DNA of 64,000 nucleotides from a virus (taxonomy: Duplodnaviria > Caudoviricetes), in the IMG/VR virus record IMGVR_UViG_3300028048_000072, positions 68,723 to 132,722 of that record. One strand, 5' to 3'. Position numbers and translations under genes: made by a program. The first letter of the stretch is position 1. Every line of letters starts with the position of its first letter. The notes beneath the pieces are model-generated. The model worked only from the letters and a program-made list of their open reading frames with translations. It ran no database searches and was not told the origin of the DNA. Shown here piece by piece: positions 1,686 to 64,000 of the stretch.

Positions 1686-3026
1686 ATGAATTTTACAGAA
1701 ATAATGGATACTTGTAATAAGGTGAAATCAATCTCATCAACAAACGAAAAGAAAGAATTTCTTGCATCAATTACTGATGAAGATTTCAAAAAATTTCTTA
1801 AATGGGAATTTGATAGTAGCATTATAACGGGAATTTCAGATAAAAAAATTAATAAAATTTTCGATGATGATGTTTTCAGTGATTGGGCAACATGTGACGT
1901 AAAAGAAATTTTTGATGTATTCAGATATTTGGAAAATCATAAAACGGGAACAGATGAAGATATTCGTACAATTCAGTGGTACAGAAATCATCTTTGTGAG
2001 AATGATGAAGAAAAAGAATTCTTTAATAGAGTTGTTAGTAAGGATTTGCCGATTGGTTGTGATGTAAAAATTTTGAATTCTGTTTGGAATGGTCTTATTC
2101 CTACATTTAACGTAGGATTATGTGATAAATATTATGGAAATGAAAAGATAATTGATGGAACAGTAGACTATCTCATCGATACTAAAACGGATGGTTGCCG
2201 TTGTGTTGCAATTAAAGAAAATGGAAGTGTAAGACTTACTTCAAGAGGTGGTAAACCTTGGCTTGGAATGATTGAAATTGAAAAAGCAATTAAAGATTTA
2301 CCACAAGATAATATTGTATTTGATTCGGAAATTACTATTAAAAATCCACAGAATTATCCTTCATTGGAAGTATATGATAGAACGATTAAAATTGTAACAA
2401 CTAAATTAGAAGAAAAAGTAGGATTGCAGTTGAATTGTTTTGATTATATGACACTTGAAGAATGGAACAATCAAGAATCAAAATTCCCTTGTATTGAAAG
2501 AAAGGCACAACTTGAAAAAATTATAGAAGGAAATGAATTCCTTGTATATGTTGAAAATCTTTATGTTGGGAAAGACCCTAATGTTATTGAAGAATTGATG
2601 AATACAATTGTTGAAGATAATGATATGGAAGGATTGGTTGTTAAGGTGGCTAATTCTCCATATCAGTGGAAAAGAACAAAGAATTGGCTCAAAGTTAAAA
2701 AAATGTTGCGTTCTGATGCTGATGGTAAAGAAGTAGACGCTACAATTGTTGGATACTATGAGGGTAAAAATAAAAATAAAGGAAAACTTGGTGGATTGTA
2801 TTGTACTATGGAACACCCAACTTATGGACATTTGGAATTCAAATGTGGTGGAGGTTTCAGTGATTATATGAGAGAATATCTGTTTTCTCTAGGTGATAAA
2901 CTTATAGGAAGAACAATTTCTGTACAGTATTTTGAAGCAAGTAAGAATTCTAAAACCAATGTACAGTCGGTTAGATTTCCTGTATTCCTTGAATTAAAGG
3001 AAGAAGGACAAGAACCGAATAATTAA
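1686..3026 (+). CDS. ATP-dependent DNA ligase (phage type)
   Basis: KxDG motif (TKTDGCR), EGLVVK, WLKVK, C-terminal OB domain with SVRFPVF; GGAGG RBS before ATG 1686. Confidence 0.92.
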   Translation: MNFTEIMDTCNKVKSISSTNEKKEFLASITDEDFKKFLKWEFDSSIITGISDKKINKIFDDDVFSDWATCDVKEIFDVFRYLENHKTGTDEDIRTIQWYRNHLCENDEEKEFFNRVVSKDLPIGCDVKILNSVWNGLIPTFNVGLCDKYYGNEKIIDGTVDYLIDTKTDGCRCVAIKENGSVRLTSRGGKPWLGMIEIEKAIKDLPQDNIVFDSEITIKNPQNYPSLEVYDRTIKIVTTKLEEKVGLQLNCFDYMTLEEWNNQESKFPCIERKAQLEKIIEGNEFLVYVENLYVGKDPNVIEELMNTIVEDNDMEGLVVKVANSPYQWKRTKNWLKVKKMLRSDADGKEVDATIVGYYEGKNKNKGKLGGLYCTMEHPTYGHLEFKCGGGFSDYMREYLFSLGDKLIGRTISVQYFEASKNSKTNVQSVRFPVFLELKEEGQEPNN

Positions 3027-3080
3027 TTGATTAATTAATTAAAAATCAATATAATCATATTACTTTGGAGGATTAATTTA

Positions 3081-3608
3081 ATGGAAAACGTATTGTTTAG
3101 ATACGCAAAAGTAAGAGATGTTGAATCACCACTTGTTTCTACAGATTATAGTGTAGGAATTGATTTTTTTATGCCTAAATTTACTATGGAACTTGCCGAT
3201 GAAATTTGGGAAAAGAATAAGGATTCAATTAGTGAAGTTTTTGGTTCTGAATTTGGTACTGCAGAATGTGGATTTAGAATTAAACCACATCGTGGAGTTG
3301 TAATCCCTAGTGGATTGAAAATTCAGATTCCAACAGATAAGGGATTGGCTTTTGGAAATCGTTCATCTGTTGCAAGTAAAAAACTTACTATTGTCGGTGC
3401 GTTTTTAATTGACCCTGATTATAAGAATGAAATGTTCTTTAATCTTATCAATGTATCTGATGATTATGTCACATTTAACTTTGGTGATAAAATCGTTCAA
3501 GGTCAGATTGTAAATCGTCATGAAATTACATTTGAAGAAGTAAAGGAAGATGAATTAATATATCCAATTTCAAATAGAGTTGGTGGTTGTGGTTCTACGG
3601 GTAAATAA
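3081..3608 (+). CDS. dut: trimeric dUTPase
   Basis: motifs GIDF, NRSS, IDPDY, GDKIVQ, RVGGCGSTG. Confidence 0.92.
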   Translation: MENVLFRYAKVRDVESPLVSTDYSVGIDFFMPKFTMELADEIWEKNKDSISEVFGSEFGTAECGFRIKPHRGVVIPSGLKIQIPTDKGLAFGNRSSVASKKLTIVGAFLIDPDYKNEMFFNLINVSDDYVTFNFGDKIVQGQIVNRHEITFEEVKEDELIYPISNRVGGCGSTGK

Positions 3609-6009: not shown

Positions 6010-7174
6010 ATGTCATAACTTAATTTTAGAATTTTATAAACCAACTTATAATCTTGATTTTGATTATGATGGTGACGGTGGATTGGATTTACATTTCACA
6101 AACATTAAAGGTGAGTTCTTCATGACAATGAATGACAGTTATAATTCTGTTTACATTGAAGATGAAGATTGTGAATTCTCAAAAGGTGAAATGTTTGCTA
6201 CTGTAGATTTGGGCGACTTGGTTGAAAGAATTGTTCAAGGTGAATTCAGACAGACTAATGGAAAAGCAGTTAGTGATTGGGGTAAACGATTCATTGGTGA
6301 TGGTGAAGAAAGAATAGAATTTAATGGTAAGAATTATGCAGATGGCTTATCATTTTGGAATGATTTCTTTAAGGAAATGCCAAAAGATGAAATTAAAGAT
6401 TTCATGACATTCTGTGAAGATTACCTTTATTTGCCGAACATTGAAGTTGATACTGTTTCAGATAAGTATGATTTTGAAAACGGCAAAGTTGAATTAAAAT
6501 CTAATGGTAAATGGGGTATTACCATTAATGATGATTACACAATTATTTCAGTTGATGAATTTACTTGTAATTCTACAGACGCTTGTGATACTTATGATGT
6601 TGCAAGTTCTGAATCAGATGTAGATGATTATTATGAATCAAAGAAATCTGTAAGAAAATCTTTGAAAGAAGGAATTGATGTTAAAATCGTATATTGGGAC
6701 GACACCCCTACAGATTATCTTGACGATGTTACAAGAAATGATATTATTGATTTGGAAAATGACGCAAATGTTTATAAAATCATCGATGTAACTAATGGCA
6801 AGAAGAAAACAATTTATTTGGATGAATCAAAGAAATCTGCTAGAAAATCTTTGAAAGAATCAACAGATGAAGATTTTTCACTTTATGACCTTAATAAACA
6901 CGACCCTTTTGTAAAAGAATGGGTTAAAAATATCAATAAAGAACTTAAAGATGTTTCTATTGAATCAATTGGTGATGATGAAATTGTATTTAGAGTTTGG
7001 TTTGATGAAACTATGGATTTGGATATTTTTGATGATATCGTAACCGATTGTATGCCTAAAACATTAATTGAGTTTATGTCTGATATGAATATTGATTTTG
7101 GTTATCAGTTTGTGTATGAAGATGATAAATTTACAGAAAATGATTTTGTATTTATCAGATTTGTAGCATGGTAA
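6010..7174 (+). CDS. acidic modular protein with two ESKKSxRKSLKE linkers; RBS-linked ATG 6010 is 1 nt out of frame with ORF 6083..7174
   Basis: ORF track 6083..7174, frame open upstream through 6011; GGAGA RBS + ATG at 6010 reads M-S-stop. Confidence 0.6.
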
Positions 7175-8152
7175 TATAGGAGAAAATAGTATGAATAAAA
7201 TTTTTAATGAACTTGAAAAATATTGCGATAGACATTCTGTTAAATTGCAAATTGATGAATTTCCCAAAGATAAAAATAGATTTGAAATAACACTTGATAA
7301 TTTTATATATGAAGAATTGAGCGATATTCGTAACATTATTCGAGATTTTGCTAAAATAGAAGATGATGTTCATTTAGCAGGAAATGGTAGAGCAATTGAT
7401 ATTTATATTGAAGATTTAAATGAATCAAAGTCTATGAAAGAATCTGTAGATGGAAAATTCGCTACAGATGAAGAATGTAATATGGCTGGTGAAGGTTGGA
7501 TTCTTGAAGGTACATATAATTTCATAATGGAATTTCTTGAAGAATGGGGAATCGCACCTACAGATGTGATACCTCAAAAACATGATACACTTGCTTTGTA
7601 TAACACTGATGGAAATGTTTTTGGATATTGCCACCATGATGATGAAGTTGATATTTATGTAGTTGATAAAGAAATCAATTATTTTTGGAAAAATTACAAG
7701 CCTTCAACTAAGCGTGTAAAAGTAACTGCTTTTGATGAAATATTTTAATTAAAAATAAATTATGGGGGGGGGAATTAAATATGGCTAGTGAATTTGATGT
7801 TTATTCTTTTGTAAAAGGTGAATTTGGAGTAGAAATTGTAGGTCAAGGAAAAAATGGAACTTATGACACAGTTCATCTATATATTCAACCTTTTAGTAGA
7901 AATAATGATAAATTGGCGGTTGATGAATATGTAGGAAGATATGCAGAAACACCAAGTTGGTCTAAAATATTCACTCTTTCAGAAAATGATTTATCTGACG
8001 CAATAAAAATATACAACAATTATGTTGTATCTAGCGATAGAATAGATATTCACATGATTGATAAAGAAATTTATAAAGAAGTAAAAATGAGATTGAATGA
8101 TATTTTTGAAATAAAAGAATCAAAGAAATCTGTCAGAAAATCTTTGAAAGAA
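6635..8152 (+). repeat. 36-bp dispersed coding repeat GAATCAAAGAAATCTGNNAGAAAATCTTTGAAAGAA (x3, plus one short variant)
   Basis: copies at 6635-6670, 6824-6859, 8117-8152; variant at 7422-7442. Confidence 0.9.
7191..7748 (+). CDS. acidic two-module protein with ESKSMKE linker
   Basis: AGGAG RBS; shortened copy of the linker at 7422-7442. Confidence 0.65.
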   Translation: MNKIFNELEKYCDRHSVKLQIDEFPKDKNRFEITLDNFIYEELSDIRNIIRDFAKIEDDVHLAGNGRAIDIYIEDLNESKSMKESVDGKFATDEECNMAGEGWILEGTYNFIMEFLEEWGIAPTDVIPQKHDTLALYNTDGNVFGYCHHDDEVDIYVVDKEINYFWKNYKPSTKRVKVTAFDEIF

Positions 8153-8553: not shown

Positions 8554-9318
8554 ATGAGCGAAATAACTTTATATAAAGGTGATTGTTTAGAATTGATGAG
8601 CAATATAAAAGATAAATCGGTTGATATGATTTTGGCTGATTTACCGTATGGTCAATTAAAATCTGAAACTTTAAAATGGGATAATATAATTCCGTTTGAT
8701 AAGTTATGGGGACAGTATAATCGAGTTATTAAAGATAATGGTGTAATTGCTTTGTTTGGAAGTGGATTATTTACTGTAGATTTAATCAATTCGAATCGAA
8801 AAGATTTTAAATATAATCTTATTTGGGAAAAGAATGTTCCCACAGGAATGTCATCTGCAAAATATAGACCGATGAAATATTATGAAACAATTTCAGTATT
8901 TTATAAAGAACTTCCAACTTATAATCCAATTATGAAAGAAAGAATTGGAAAAGGTAAAGAATGTTATAATTATGAACATTATTGTGGAAATTCTAATCAT
9001 CTCAAATTAAATAAAATAAAGAAAAAATATGACCCTAATTTTGTACAACCTTCTGATATTTTGAAATTTGATGTAGTTCCAAATAGAAACGGAAAATTAC
9101 ATCCTACTCAAAAACCAACTGCTTTACTTGAATATCTCATCAAGACCTACACTAACGAAAATGAATGGATATTAGATAACTGTATGGGAAGTGGTAGTAC
9201 ATGTGTCGCTTGTATCAACACAAAAAGAAATTTTATCGGAATTGAAAAAGATGATAAATATTTTGAGATTGCGGAAGATAGGATAAACAAGGCGAAGGAA
9301 AGTATTTTTGACATGTGA
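8554..9318 (+). CDS. orphan DNA methyltransferase, N6/N4 beta class
   Basis: DLPY, HPTQKP, LDNCMGSGST. Confidence 0.93.
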   Translation: MSEITLYKGDCLELMSNIKDKSVDMILADLPYGQLKSETLKWDNIIPFDKLWGQYNRVIKDNGVIALFGSGLFTVDLINSNRKDFKYNLIWEKNVPTGMSSAKYRPMKYYETISVFYKELPTYNPIMKERIGKGKECYNYEHYCGNSNHLKLNKIKKKYDPNFVQPSDILKFDVVPNRNGKLHPTQKPTALLEYLIKTYTNENEWILDNCMGSGSTCVACINTKRNFIGIEKDDKYFEIAEDRINKAKESIFDM

Positions 9319-10263: not shown

Positions 10264-12399
10264 ATGAACGAAACAAATGTCAAGATAAAGAAAATCAAGA
10301 AAGTTATGAGTGAAACAAATTTTATTGGTGTCGATTTGAGTAAAGGTAGTGATGTAGGAACTTGTAATGGAAAAGTTACACCTAAAGTTGTAAAAAAAGT
10401 AAAGAAGATTGTAAAAGATGAATCTACCATGAAATCTGATGTTGTAGACAATTCTCCTTGCGATTTCAGTGATTTTGAAAGTGGTAAAGTTGAAGTATCT
10501 AGTTCTGCTAATGTGCCGACTGTGAAAAAGGTGAAGAAAGAAATTAAAAAAATTGTAAAAGATATTAAAGACGAAATATCTAATTCTACAGATGTAATTT
10601 CTTTTGTACGAGTCATTGACTTGAAAAGAGAAGATTATTCAGAATTTACTGAAGAAAAATATCCATACGGTTTGACCTTCCTAGATTTTGAGGTGTTCAA
10701 GTATGATTGGTTGGTAGTTTTGATAGATGTTATTGAATTAAAAGAAACTATAATTGTAAACGATAGAAAAGCGTTGTTGAAGTTCTATATGTCTCATCGT
10801 AACAAATTACACGCTTCATATAACGGTCGCTCTTACGATTCTACAATATATAAAGGAATTATTCTTGGTATGAATCCTAAAGAATTGAATGATAAATTGA
10901 TTGTAGAAAGATTAAAACCTTTTCAAATTAGTAATAAATTTAAAGAAGTTGAATTATTAAATTATGATATAATGACTAAAATAGAATCATTAAAGGTTCT
11001 TGAAGCGTACCTACAAGATTCTATATATGAATCAAAAATTTCTTTTGACATTGATAGACCTCTTACAATGGATGAACTTGAGGAAACGATTCGCTACTGC
11101 CATAACGATGTTGTGGAATGTAAAAAAGTTTTTCTTTTAAGACACGATGATTTTGAAGTTAGTATGGGTGTAATTGAAATGTTTAATTTACCTATATCAA
11201 ATATAAATCTTACAAATGCACAATTGACTGCTAAAGTTTTGGAATGTGAAAGACCAAAAGAAGATAGAAAAGATGAATTTAATTTGTGGGTAGTTGATAC
11301 AGTAAAACTTGAAAAATATAAAGACGTTATCGATTGGTTTATGAATCCTGCAAATCATGATTATAGTAAATTTTATGTTCGTGATGTTTGTGGTATGAAA
11401 CATAAATTTGGTTGGGGTGGATTACATTCTGTGAATGATGAACCGATGATTATCAACGAACATGTACAAGATTGGGATGTGGCTAGTCTTTATCCCTCAC
11501 TTGATATTCGATACGAGTTGCTAACTAGAAATTGTAAACATCCTGAAAAATTTAAATTTATTTATGACGAACGCATTCGATTAAAGAAAGCAAAAGACCC
11601 TAAGAACAAATGTTTGAAGTTGATTTTAAATTCAACTTATGGAATTTGTAAAGATAAAAACAGTTCTGCTTACGACCCTTTGATGTCAAACATGACTTGT
11701 CTTACAGGACAACTTTTAATTCTTATGTTAATTGAATGGATTGAACCTTATGTAAAAATATGGGTTCAAACCAATACGGACGGAATCCAGTTTGTTGCTA
11801 AAGATGGTTGTCAAGAAAAGATAGAAAGTTTAATTCACAAATGGGAAGGTGTATCAGGTATGAATATGGAAGTCGAAAATATTTTGAAAACTTACCAATC
11901 GAACGTCAACAATTATACCTTCCAACTAGATGATGGGTCGTTTAAAAGAAAAGGAGCATATCTTAAAAAAGCAACTCCACTAGACGCTGATTTACCAATT
12001 GTCAATGAAGCAATGTTTAATTTCTTAGCATATGGAAAAAAAATTGAAGATACTATAAATGAATGTAATGATTTATACATGTTTCAGAAAGTGTATAAAA
12101 TTTCATCAAACTACAAATATGGTTATCATAATGGCAAAGAAATTAACGAAAAGGTGTATCGTATTTTTGCTTCTAATGATTTGAAAGATACATGGTTAGG
12201 AAAACAGAAAGAAAAAGGGGGAACGATTGAAAAATTTGCAAATTGTCCAAATAACTGTTTTCTTGAATTGGGAGATATACATGGTAAAAAATGTTCAGAA
12301 TATCCTATGTTGAATAAACAATGGTATATTGATTTAGCACAAGATAGAATTGAAAAAGGTTATCATTTGGATTGTAAACCAAGTATTTTTGATTTTTAA
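10264..12399 (+). CDS. family B DNA polymerase with 3'-5' exonuclease and Lys-rich N-terminal extension
   Basis: Exo motifs DFE, YNGRSYD, YCHND; Pol motifs DVASLYPS, KLILNSTYG, NTDG. Confidence 0.9.
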   Translation: MNETNVKIKKIKKVMSETNFIGVDLSKGSDVGTCNGKVTPKVVKKVKKIVKDESTMKSDVVDNSPCDFSDFESGKVEVSSSANVPTVKKVKKEIKKIVKDIKDEISNSTDVISFVRVIDLKREDYSEFTEEKYPYGLTFLDFEVFKYDWLVVLIDVIELKETIIVNDRKALLKFYMSHRNKLHASYNGRSYDSTIYKGIILGMNPKELNDKLIVERLKPFQISNKFKEVELLNYDIMTKIESLKVLEAYLQDSIYESKISFDIDRPLTMDELEETIRYCHNDVVECKKVFLLRHDDFEVSMGVIEMFNLPISNINLTNAQLTAKVLECERPKEDRKDEFNLWVVDTVKLEKYKDVIDWFMNPANHDYSKFYVRDVCGMKHKFGWGGLHSVNDEPMIINEHVQDWDVASLYPSLDIRYELLTRNCKHPEKFKFIYDERIRLKKAKDPKNKCLKLILNSTYGICKDKNSSAYDPLMSNMTCLTGQLLILMLIEWIEPYVKIWVQTNTDGIQFVAKDGCQEKIESLIHKWEGVSGMNMEVENILKTYQSNVNNYTFQLDDGSFKRKGAYLKKATPLDADLPIVNEAMFNFLAYGKKIEDTINECNDLYMFQKVYKISSNYKYGYHNGKEINEKVYRIFASNDLKDTWLGKQKEKGGTIEKFANCPNNCFLELGDIHGKKCSEYPMLNKQWYIDLAQDRIEKGYHLDCKPSIFDF

Positions 12400-12422
12400 C
12401 AAATTAACTATTTTAGTAATTG

Positions 12423-12502
12423 AACGATTACAGATAGGTGTGCGAAACCTTAGAAAGTAAAGAAATCGACTCCTTTTACTTTCATATCTGCAATCGTTTT
12501 TT
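12423..12502 (+). ncRNA. putative three-way-junction small RNA antisense to the 5' UTR of the downstream endonuclease gene
   Basis: P1 12423-12436/12485-12498; loops GTGCGAA (12440-12446) and TCGACTCCT (12466-12474); T-tract; TAACTAT at 12405. Confidence 0.65.
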
Positions 12503-12588
12503 ATTTAATTATTTTATTTATAAATATTAACTATTTATTATGTGTTATTCGCACTAGCACAAAAAATTATTTCTATAGGAGTCGAATT

Positions 12589-13734
12589 ATGACAAAAGAA
12601 GAAGCAACTCAAAAATATTATAATTTAGTGGAATTATGTAAAATTGAAGATGTTGATTGTGAAAAATACAACATGCATCATATCGAACCAATTTTTACAT
12701 TGAAAGAAAAATACAATGTAAAACGAACTAAGGAAATTAGATATAATAAGAATATTGATTTTGGTGAAGAAATAAAATGTTCAATTCCGCATCACATAAT
12801 GTTACATTTTTATTTATGTTTTATGTTTGATAGAGGAACGACATTATATAAAAGTGCAAAATCTTCATTTTGGTTCATTACTAATAAAACATTAACGCAA
12901 AGTATAGAATCTTTAACAGAAGATGATGTTAAAAATATAGGTAAATATTGTGAAGAGTTGAAGAAAACTAATTGGACGGATGAAGATAAGAAAAATTATA
13001 GAAAAACTAATAAACGAATAGAAGCCGACAGAGAATATAGAAGAAAAAACAAAGAAAGATTAGCAAAACAACATAGCGAATATTATAAAGAACATAAAGA
13101 AGAAAGAATGGAATATTATGAAGAATGGAGAAGTAAAAATGAACCTAGATTGAGGGAATATAGAAAAGAAAGAAATCAAATAATAAGAAATCGCTTGTGT
13201 GTAGACCCAAGATGTATTATTAGTAATAAAATAAAATCAAAAATAACAAATTGGAGAAATTTGTCTAGTTGGATGGATAAAAATCCTCAAAATGAATTAG
13301 TAAAAGAATTTAAATCATCTAATGATTTTGCTGATTATTATCTTATTAAAGATGAAAATAACAATTATATATACGATATTGAATTAGCGGAATCTATCTT
13401 AAAAACAACGACAAATAAAAAATTTTCAAATATATTAAATTTTAAAATACAAGGAGTTAAAAATCCTAAAGATAGTAATGTTCGTTTATGTATAGACCCC
13501 AGATTTGGAAAAACGATAATTATATCTAAATACAAAAGTATAAATTGGAATTCAGAAATTACAGAATGGAGAAATTTGTATAATTGGTGTAAACGTAATT
13601 CTGATAATGAACTGATTGAAAATTTAAAACCCAATGAATTTGCAAACAAATATTTAATAATTGATTCAGAAGGAAATTACATTTATGATGAAGAAACAGC
13701 ATTAAAAATTATTAATAAAGAAAATAATGATTGA
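12589..13734 (+). CDS. free-standing HNH-like endonuclease with duplicated C-terminal domain
   Basis: HHIEP...HIMLH; charged helical repeat region; two RLCxDPR...WRNL...YLI repeats. Confidence 0.65.
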   Translation: MTKEEATQKYYNLVELCKIEDVDCEKYNMHHIEPIFTLKEKYNVKRTKEIRYNKNIDFGEEIKCSIPHHIMLHFYLCFMFDRGTTLYKSAKSSFWFITNKTLTQSIESLTEDDVKNIGKYCEELKKTNWTDEDKKNYRKTNKRIEADREYRRKNKERLAKQHSEYYKEHKEERMEYYEEWRSKNEPRLREYRKERNQIIRNRLCVDPRCIISNKIKSKITNWRNLSSWMDKNPQNELVKEFKSSNDFADYYLIKDENNNYIYDIELAESILKTTTNKKFSNILNFKIQGVKNPKDSNVRLCIDPRFGKTIIISKYKSINWNSEITEWRNLYNWCKRNSDNELIENLKPNEFANKYLIIDSEGNYIYDEETALKIINKENND

Positions 13735-15525: not shown

Positions 15526-16295
15526 ATGAGTATAGAATTAATTAAAGGTGATTGTCTTAAAGAAATGAAAAATATTAAAGATGAATCTGTGCAACTTATT
15601 CTTACAGATTTACCTTATGGTACTACACCTTTAGAATTTGATAAAGAGATAATTCCTTTTGAACCTTTATGGAAAGAATATAAAAGAATTATTAAGAAAA
15701 ATGGTGCTATTGTATTATTTGCTCAACAACCTTTTACAAGTAAATTAATCATGTCTAATTTAGATATGTATAAATATAATTGGATATGGGTAAAAGATAA
15801 TGCAACAAATTTCTTGAATAAACGTTATCAATGTGGAAAGATTACGGAAGATATTTGTGTATTTGGAAAAGGTGCATGTTCTTTTACTAAGAATGGTATT
15901 AATATGAAATATAATCCACAAATGGAAGTTGGAAAACCGTATAAAACTACTAATAATGTGTTTAGAAGAAAGTGTGCGGTCGTGAGGGGGGGATTAGAAA
16001 TGTCGATACAATAAATAATGGTGAAAGATTGCCAAATAATTTATTGTATTTTTCACATGATACAGATGAAAGATTGCATCCTACACAAAAGCCTTTAGAT
16101 TTAATTAGATATTTGATTAAGACTTATACTGATGAAAATGATTTGGTTTTAGATTCGTGCATGGGAAGTGGAACTACTGCTATAGGATGTTTTGCAGAAA
16201 AGAGAAATTTTATCGGATATGAAATTGATGATAATTATTTTGAAATTGCAAAGAAAAGATATGAAAAAGTAAGTACAAGTATATTTGATATGTAA
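15526..16295 (+). pseudogene. beta-class DNA methyltransferase split by a frameshift in a G7 tract (possibly phase-variable)
   Basis: DLPY in 15526..16014; HPTQKP and DSCMGSG in 15972..16295; G7 at 15986-15992, and G8 restores the frame. Confidence 0.85.
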
Positions 16296-17506: not shown

Positions 17507-18247
17507 ATGAGTAAAGTTGAATTGTATAATGAAGATTGCTTGGAAGTAATGGAGGGGGTGGCAGATAAATCGGTAGACATGATTTTATGTGATTTACCTT
17601 ATAATGTTACTGCTTGCGAATGGGATATATTAATACCTTTTGATAAATTATGGGGGCAATATAATAGAATTATAAAAGACAATGGTGCGATTGTATTATT
17701 TGGTACAGAACCGTTCTCTACACAATTAAAAATGAGTAATCTGAAACATTATAAATATGATTGGATTTGGAATAAAGTTCGTGGTGTAGGATTTCAAATT
17801 GCAAAATATAGACCAATGCAACAACATGAATATATTTCTGTATTTTGCAACGGTAAATTAAATTATTATCCTATTATGGAAAAAAGAGATAAAGTGAAAA
17901 AATCTAAAAATTATGGTAATTCTAAAGTTTGCAGATTACAAAGTAATGATATGAAAGAAAGAATTTATACAGAAAAATATCCAACTTCAATTTTAACTTA
18001 TTCTAATGCTTCTCAAAAAGGTAGATTGCATCCAAGTCAAAAACCTACAAATTTATTAGAATATCTTATAAAGACTTATACAAAAGAAAACGAAACAGTT
18101 TTGGACAATTGTATGGGAAGTGGAAGTACAGGTGTCGCTTGTATTAATACAAATCGCAATTTCATCGGCATTGAAAAAGACGACAAGTATTTCAAGATTG
18201 CGGAAGATAGGATAAACAAAGCGAAAGAAAGTATTTTTGATATGTAA
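17507..18247 (+). CDS. orphan DNA methyltransferase, N6/N4 beta class
   Basis: DLPY, HPSQKP, LDNCMGSGST; paralog of 8554..9318. Confidence 0.93.
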   Translation: MSKVELYNEDCLEVMEGVADKSVDMILCDLPYNVTACEWDILIPFDKLWGQYNRIIKDNGAIVLFGTEPFSTQLKMSNLKHYKYDWIWNKVRGVGFQIAKYRPMQQHEYISVFCNGKLNYYPIMEKRDKVKKSKNYGNSKVCRLQSNDMKERIYTEKYPTSILTYSNASQKGRLHPSQKPTNLLEYLIKTYTKENETVLDNCMGSGSTGVACINTNRNFIGIEKDDKYFKIAEDRINKAKESIFDM

Positions 18248-63350: not shown

Positions 63351-64000
63351 TTACTCCTTTGCAATTTCTGCTTCTGCGTCTATTCCAGTTATCTCTTTGA
63401 ATACTTCGTTGTTCCAGTTCGGAAGTTTCAATAACTGTTTGTGTTCTTCTTTGCTTGCTTTATCCCAAGCCAATTTCCACGCTTCTTTATATTCAAGAGT
63501 TTTCAAATATCCACCGCAAGTTTCAATTTCCTTTTTGTGTACTTCTTTTTCTTCTTCTGTAGCAGTATCATGTGACACCCAAACAGTTAAATCAAAATAG
63601 CACCAAGAAGGAATGACAATTTCATCTCTTTTCTTTTTTGTCATTTTATTAAACATTCTGACATTCGGTTCGTTGGAATTGAAAAATCCGCTATTATATG
63701 AACCGCTATTACATGAACCGCTATTATATGAACCGCTATTCCATGAACCGCTATTATATGAACCGCTATTACATGAACCGCTATTATATGAACCGCTATT
63801 ACATGAACCGCTATTCCTTGAACCGCTATTCCTTGAACCGCTATTCCTTGAACCGCTATTACATGAACCGCTATTATATGAACCGCTATTACATAAACCG
63901 CTATTCCTTGAACCGCTATTCCTTGAACCGCTATTACATGAACCGCTATTATATGAACCGCTATTACATAAACCGCTATTCCTTGAACCGCTATTCTTTG
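63351..64000 (-). CDS. NSGxx pentapeptide-repeat phage protein (5' truncated by the window edge)
   Basis: repeat array is in frame with ORF 63351..63656 (GGYLK...LPNWN..VF.EITGI C-terminus). Confidence 0.85.
   Translation of the reverse strand, partial: KNSGSRNSGLCNSGSYNSGSCNSGSRNSGSRNSGLCNSGSYNSGSCNSGSRNSGSRNSGSRNSGSCNSGSYNSGSCNSGSYNSGSWNSGSYNSGSCNSGSYNSGFFNSNEPNVRMFNKMTKKKRDEIVIPSWCYFDLTVWVSHDTATEEEKEVHKKEIETCGGYLKTLEYKEAWKLAWDKASKEEHKQLLKLPNWNNEVFKEITGIDAEAEIAKE
63688..64000 (-). repeat. 15-bp tandem repeat, at least 20 units, encoding NSGS[YCWRK]
   Basis: GAACCGCTATTNNNT units from 63700 to 63999. Confidence 0.95.

Follow-up and report, generated by a model that had tools for sequence, protein, structure and literature searches.

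In a large uncultured phage, the region that separates a DNA polymerase gene from a nuclease gene very likely holds a real and uncatalogued RNA brake on the production of the nuclease. The predicted RNA folds as a three-way junction whose two loops are exactly complementary to two sites in the leader of the nuclease gene, and relatives retain both pairings through compensatory changes. As judged from the sequence, the RNA can with good confidence be expected to repress translation of the nuclease, since the pairing covers the Shine-Dalgarno (SD) sequence in every cassette type. Sequence and analogy further suggest, with a probability of roughly 0.55, that it acts as a discrete, C4-like two-loop antisense repressor of a mobile homing-endonuclease cassette.

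Fold and genomic setting of the junction RNA

The virus contig holding the analyzed stretch of 64,000 nt (the window) has a length of 132.7 kb and a GC content of 26.7% and encodes tail sheath, tube and baseplate proteins. The RNA element fills the 189-nt gap between the polymerase and nuclease genes. A DnaB-like helicase gene is located 60 nt 3' of the nuclease gene. The following features were assigned in the window:

10264–12399, + strand: DNA polymerase gene, family-B-like (phrog_1252, E 1e-129; closest phage matches annotated as DNA polymerase/PolB)
12405–12411, + strand: TAACTAT, putative phage (late-type) promoter element, 11 nt 5' of the junction RNA
12423–12498, + strand: three-way-junction RNA of about 80 nt (MFE fold, covariation)
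12423–12436/12485–12498 (P1), 12437–12439/12447–12449 (P2) and 12453–12462/12474–12483 (P3), + strand: stems of the junction RNA
12440–12446, + strand: loop 1, 7 nt, exact complement of the leader hairpin loop 12548–12554 (7/7)
12463–12474, + strand: loop 2, with the anti-SD segment 12466–12474, exact complement of 12577–12585 (9/9)
12497–12506, + strand: T-rich tract after P1, terminator-like, where transcription would end
12506–12512, + strand: degenerate promoter-like motif, an exact TAACTAT in most homologues (alignments)
12528–12534, + strand: internal TAACTAT, putative promoter of a nuclease mRNA that would exclude the junction RNA
12541–12561, + strand: leader hairpin of 7 bp, displaying the 7-nt target loop 12548–12554
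12577–12585, + strand: SD sequence AGGAG with its spacer, the loop-2 target; nested folds leave it mostly unpaired (0.63–0.68)
12589–13734, + strand: ORF of 381 aa, free-standing and similar to Mob-type HNH homing endonucleases, with a nuclease-like N-terminus, a helical spacer and two repeats of about 80 aa
12385–12399, 9300–9318, 16280–16295 and 18230–18247: sites of an acidic-aromatic C-terminal peptide

The MFE fold recovered the three-way junction at 12423–12498 followed by the 7-bp hairpin at 12541–12561. The closing stem P1 is paired at 13 of 14 positions with a single A-C mismatch, P2 below loop 1 is short (3–4 bp), and the final base of the anti-SD segment (12474) also closes the loop-2 stem as a G-U pair. 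Folding of the junction alone yielded z = −3.7 against shuffled sequences and −4.3 to −7.1 for homologues. For the duplex of loop 2 with the SD site of the window −15.5 kcal/mol was calculated, compared to −6.8 kcal/mol for the generic 16S anti-SD sequence. A preceding sequence-only reading of this DNA had described the same junction and hairpin, the 13/14 pairing of P1, both loop complements and the TAACTAT motifs at 12405 and 12528, and every one of these coordinates and complements was verified in the sequence. The T-tract which it had placed after the stem is also present, but comprises just four T plus ATTT and was not called by a standard terminator scan. A search of Rfam, which had been suggested as a check, gave no match for the junction RNA at gathering or E-value thresholds.

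No 7-mer is more enriched in front of ORFs than TAACTAT, and 31 of its 45 copies are no more than 70 nt away from a same-strand start. Because of this enrichment and its position in front of the sheath, tube and baseplate genes, we read it as probably a late-type promoter element of the phage. The variant TAATTAG was rejected as a promoter since it is not enriched, and a putative second copy of the RNA (G000:34163) turned out to be merely TAACTAT and the start of a gene.

The layout of promoter motif, junction, T-tract, promoter motif, hairpin and RBS is conserved. Across the 17 cassette types described below, the upstream motif occurs in 10, the T-tract in 14 and the exact internal TAACTAT in 15. 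All polymerase-linked types possess a T-tract, three compact types lack it, and the upstream TAACTAT is present in five of the seven polymerase-linked types (once as CAACTAT) and absent from nuclease-less alleles (L096–L099). In two further types a sigma70-like promoter lies directly 5' of P1, and in L007 the internal TAACTAT is replaced by what reads as a sigma70-like −35/−10 pair.

The N-terminal domain of the 381-aa protein contains four histidines (H30, H31, H69 and H73) that are invariant across 50 homologues, and its fold was predicted confidently (pLDDT 92). The ORF itself gave no direct match in Pfam or PHROGs, and PDB fold searches with the nuclease revealed generic helical matches only. 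The top matches of a BFVD fold search were nearly all HNH/Mob homing endonucleases, with a probability of about 1 but E-values of 0.0095 or higher. The homologue P0032 matches phrog_655, a homing-endonuclease PHROG, and HNH occurs in 17% of the members of the third atlas match. The protein is probably a free-standing HNH homing endonuclease, as sequence and predicted structure suggest; the earlier assignment as an HNH nuclease is supported by the BFVD matches, weak in their E-values, and by the phrog_655 match of the homologue. The two C-terminal repeats (window 13190–13734) are 43% identical, vary in number among homologues and gave no family or fold match. Other HNH-family paralogues (L142:1400–1503 and L143:1400–1503) are preceded by a single conserved hairpin leader after TAACTAT, not by the junction RNA.

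Several additional observations were made in the window. A DNA methyltransferase gene lies in two overlapping ORFs (15526–16014 and 15972–16295). It is split identically in the near-identical relative L002, and may therefore contain a genuine frameshift. Similar acidic-aromatic C-terminal peptides (SIFDF, SIFDM, TIFEM) are found in the polymerase, in several methyltransferases and in many cassette nucleases of relatives, where they possibly form a clamp-binding tail. A 15-nt tandem repeat array (63613–64000) reaches the contig end.

Covariation and cassette types

Homologues of the 381-aa ORF located directly 3' of the polymerase gene were compared. The same RNA was found inside their gap of 165–198 nt. 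Seven polymerase-linked sequence types retain both pairings via compensatory changes, in front of three nuclease types. Loop 1 and the hairpin loop are paired at 7/7 positions in all ten aligned sequences, with two compensatory positions. Over the whole structure 95% of the cells are paired and 19 of 36 pairs exhibit double changes (0/500 shuffles; slid controls 37–48%). Double changes occur in 9 of 13 pairs of P1 and in 3 of 7 pairs of the leader hairpin, which is paired in 100% of the cells. Seven different loop-2 sequences occur. Each is complementary over 7–11 nt to the SD and spacer of its cassette and binds the cognate leader best. Within this subfamily the loop-1 consensus GTNNGAA is kept, and the AU-rich linker differs in length among types. 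Thus, the kissing-loop and anti-SD pairing first proposed from a single sequence is borne out by covariation, the compensatory loop-target changes having been found in the homologues.

Dinucleotide shuffles of the leader yielded both matches in 0 of 20,000 cases and the single matches in 0.35% and 0.13%, respectively. Genome-wide, the loop-loop match alone is found twice in the real genome and 1.6 times per shuffled genome, which is not significant. Consequently, the case is carried by the combination of the matches and by the covariation, and the earlier statement that the matches are unlikely by chance holds for both of them jointly, not for the loop-loop match on its own. The notion that the complementarity is accidental and the element an elaborate terminator draws on the one or two loop-loop matches expected per genome; it has become negligible, refuted by seven types that keep both matches through compensatory change and by the shuffling result.

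At the same site the RNA also precedes other proteins. After the polymerase gene of L013 it is followed by a DUF7487/phrog_3339 protein, which is PD-(D/E)XK-like, and in L110 by a protein of 409 aa that resembles it in its PD-(D/E)XK-like C-terminus; in both cases loop 2 fits the cassette's own RBS. Relatives L096–L099 and L101 possess the polymerase gene without junction RNA and without this nuclease cassette. L100 (2893–2913) contains a distant HNH homologue 19 nt 3' of the polymerase gene, which lacks the junction RNA and has a weak 5-bp hairpin over its RBS. These other nuclease types, the empty alleles and the RNA-less L100 indicate that the RNA belongs to nuclease cassettes generally and not to this HNH family. 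The sequence-only reading had proposed that the RNA travels with the nuclease. It does come and go with the nuclease gene, but the partner is not always the HNH protein, as the two PD-(D/E)XK-like nucleases demonstrate.

Free-standing homing endonuclease genes are characteristically optional, being inserted next to a conserved gene and missing from the alleles of some relatives, and this pattern was observed here. The polymerase gene (10264–12399) is presumed to be the homing target of the downstream nuclease. No junction RNA was found 3' of about 70 more distant polymerase genes. L002 carries a second cassette after a helicase gene, where the present genome shows a clean empty site. The present genome (72% complete) yielded no other cassette with three covariance models or in three de novo scans. 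In L114 (around 2250–3250) a free-standing phrog_3339 nuclease gene interrupts a related polymerase gene, which consequently consists of two ORFs, an arrangement reminiscent of mobE in Aeh1 nrdA. The leader of this nuclease gene forms a classic cis hairpin over the RBS and, further upstream, may hold a complement that competes with it.

When contigs of related phages were scanned by structure only, a further ten cassette types emerged whose layout is the same but whose letters differ. PHROGs annotate nine of their ten downstream ORFs as endonucleases, a property that the scan had not demanded. Since it was a scan demanding complementarity that initially revealed the non-polymerase cassettes, their 7/7 match is selected; independent checks are provided by the nuclease identity and by new copies found with the models, which likewise pair. 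Altogether, 16 loop-1 codes were obtained, and codes that reside together in one genome cross-match at no more than 4/7 positions. In this second subfamily the loop-1 sequence is freely exchanged. Both subfamilies have the same architecture. Their common descent is unproven since their models do not significantly detect each other (R1 on L006, 20 bits, E 0.67; R2 and R3 miss the window).

Relic cassettes were also detected. Two of them retain the junction RNA and have lost the nuclease and the target hairpin (L156:12300–12523, − strand, and L131:7417–7600); a third (L129:14022–14200) retains the junction RNA with the RBS deleted. A search for an RNA with a distant cognate target revealed only such relics without target or RBS. 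A different nuclease leader is found at L003:10532–10620 (− strand) and L008:~7060–7336. Here TAACTAT is followed by a long hairpin whose loop could form an H-type pseudoknot with the RBS, and the copies differ from each other in a compensatory manner. L008 contains two copies of this leader, one of them before a gene remnant.

Proposed mode of repression and its alternatives

In the favored model a discrete junction RNA of about 85–90 nt would either be transcribed from a TAACTAT promoter of its own or form the 3' end of a polymerase mRNA that terminates behind it, and the nuclease mRNA would begin at the internal TAACTAT. Loop 1 would kiss the leader hairpin loop, which would provide recognition and specificity. 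Loop 2 would next cover the SD and spacer and thereby block ribosome loading. Read-through transcripts would be locked likewise, in cis. The outcome would be a low or short-lived expression of the nuclease, with a repression specific to the cassette's own code.

A discrete RNA acting by itself is favored by the cassette-specific promoter motif upstream and by a product that would end at the T-tract. The kissing-loop design, the orthogonal codes and the C4 precedent point in the same direction. Against it stands the strict adjacency of RNA and target. In addition, the putative internal promoter is conserved better than any other element, which regulation in cis would predict, three compact types have no T-tract and two polymerase-linked types no upstream motif, and a promoter class shared by RNA and mRNA would leave the timing of the nuclease unexplained. 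Part of this evidence agrees with a lock that works in cis only, which we regard as a serious but less probable explanation. Here the junction of a read-through transcript, coming from the polymerase operon or the upstream motif, would form a double pseudoknot with the hairpin and the RBS and thereby block translation, and the internal late promoter would give a short unlocked mRNA, so that the nuclease would be made late only. T4 I-TevI/II/III, segB and Aeh1 mobE combine an RBS-sequestering structure with an internal late promoter (PMC2988022), and the frequency of the internal motif (15/17 types), the three types without T-tract, the strict adjacency and the variable AU-rich linker are in agreement with such a lock. 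It does not explain, however, why a cassette-specific motif lies about 10 nt before P1 and a T-tract after it, or why two-loop kissing takes the place of a simple hairpin, and the orthogonal codes would have to arise by neutral drift. The discrete RNA and the cis lock, both of which the sequence-only reading had put forward, are not mutually exclusive, because read-through RNA would be locked in cis either way.

That the pairing mainly serves to control termination or polarity, the processing or stability of the mRNA, or an RNP switch with a bound protein appears improbable. P4 CI and C4 exert control via termination or polarity. Such control beyond the ribosome would be compatible with the helicase gene 60 nt 3' of the nuclease, with the loop-1 consensus kept in the polymerase-linked subfamily and with the finding that the ant genes downstream of C4 are fully repressed only in its presence (PMC8198154), but loop 2 follows the SD in every type and the second subfamily swaps its loop-1 sequence freely. 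Even further from the data is a guide or scaffold RNA that would serve the nuclease in the manner of OMEGA/HEARO, or an antitoxin that would counter a host-killing toxin. The RNA does adjoin an HNH gene, but the same RNA precedes unrelated nuclease families, its loops fit the gene's own leader, the HNH homologue of L100 follows the polymerase without it, and Rfam contains no match.

Beyond the discrete repressor one may tentatively imagine, though we consider it less likely than not, that each homing endonuclease of this phage group carries a sequence-coded trans repressor RNA and that the codes diversify against cross-talk and govern homing as immunity. If true, a resident phage would silence an incoming nuclease of the same code and not one of a new code, which would amount to RNA-based immunity between co-infecting phages. 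How selfish nucleases limit the damage to their own phage, and whether a competitor can silence them, becomes directly testable. The design is reused across unrelated nuclease families and comes naturally in 16 or more codes, all distinct from each other, which offers compact, protein-free, orthogonal translation switches.

Comparison with known systems

The junction RNA represents a real, undescribed RNA family. It is described neither in Rfam nor in the literature searched, the supplementary candidate lists of PMC10690425 aside. The closest precedent, which the sequence-only reading had not named, is the C4 antisense RNA of P1/P7. With three stems and about 77 nt, C4 occludes the RBS by its b' loop and owes its specificity to the a' loop (PMC5320573). 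Like C4 (RF01695) and P4 CI, the RNA described here is a three-stem RNA of about 80 nt directly upstream of its target (PMC5320573), with one loop on the RBS and the other on an upstream site for specificity. C4 pairs become orthogonal by a few changed letters (PMC5320573), and the codes found here are comparable. Apparently, the RNA works like C4 but is no member of its family, since it has another gene context, lacks the RNase P start and is not matched by the C4 model. The RF01695 covariance model gave no match in the genome at E ≤ 10 and none in 12300–12700. The 5' GGW start for RNase P is missing; P1 begins with AACG, and promoter motif and T-tract serve as bounds. In contrast to C4, the site bound upstream of the RBS is a hairpin loop of 7 nt in its own right, and a putative internal promoter lies between RNA and target. 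C4 belongs to the icd/ant immunity operon of temperate phages, whereas the RNA of the window lies between polymerase and nuclease genes, and the antirepressor operon is replaced by homing endonucleases of a large myophage, with several differently coded copies per genome.

In type I toxin-antitoxin systems a small RNA blocks translation of an adjacent, potentially harmful gene. Their toxins are usually hydrophobic and shorter than 60 aa, unlike the target found here, a 381-aa soluble protein similar to homing endonucleases. The sequence-only reading had likened the RNA to an antitoxin of a toxic nuclease; identity with a type I antitoxin was rejected as its defining features are absent. An OMEGA/HEARO guide was also rejected, given the lack of an Rfam match and the partners, which are unrelated homing-endonuclease families and not IscB/TnpB. 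CfrI of cyanophage S-PM2 is likewise a phage small RNA linked to a free-standing homing endonuclease gene (PMC2984593). It comprises about 225 nt, lies on the opposite strand and is fully antisense (PMC2984593), while the junction RNA lies on the same strand as its target and uses two short loops.

The RBS hairpins of T-even homing endonucleases (I-TevI/II/III, segB and Aeh1 mobE) share the predicted translational lock, and their internal late promoter (PMC2988022) would correspond to the putative one at the internal TAACTAT. They differ from the present cassettes in that a local stem covers the RBS, whereas the SD of the window is mostly unpaired in nested folds of the short and the long transcript. 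Here, two long-range, loop-mediated pairings originate from a separately folding junction with promoter-like and terminator-like signals. Known control of phage homing endonucleases relies on simple cis hairpins, to which a C4-type two-loop antisense design would be added.
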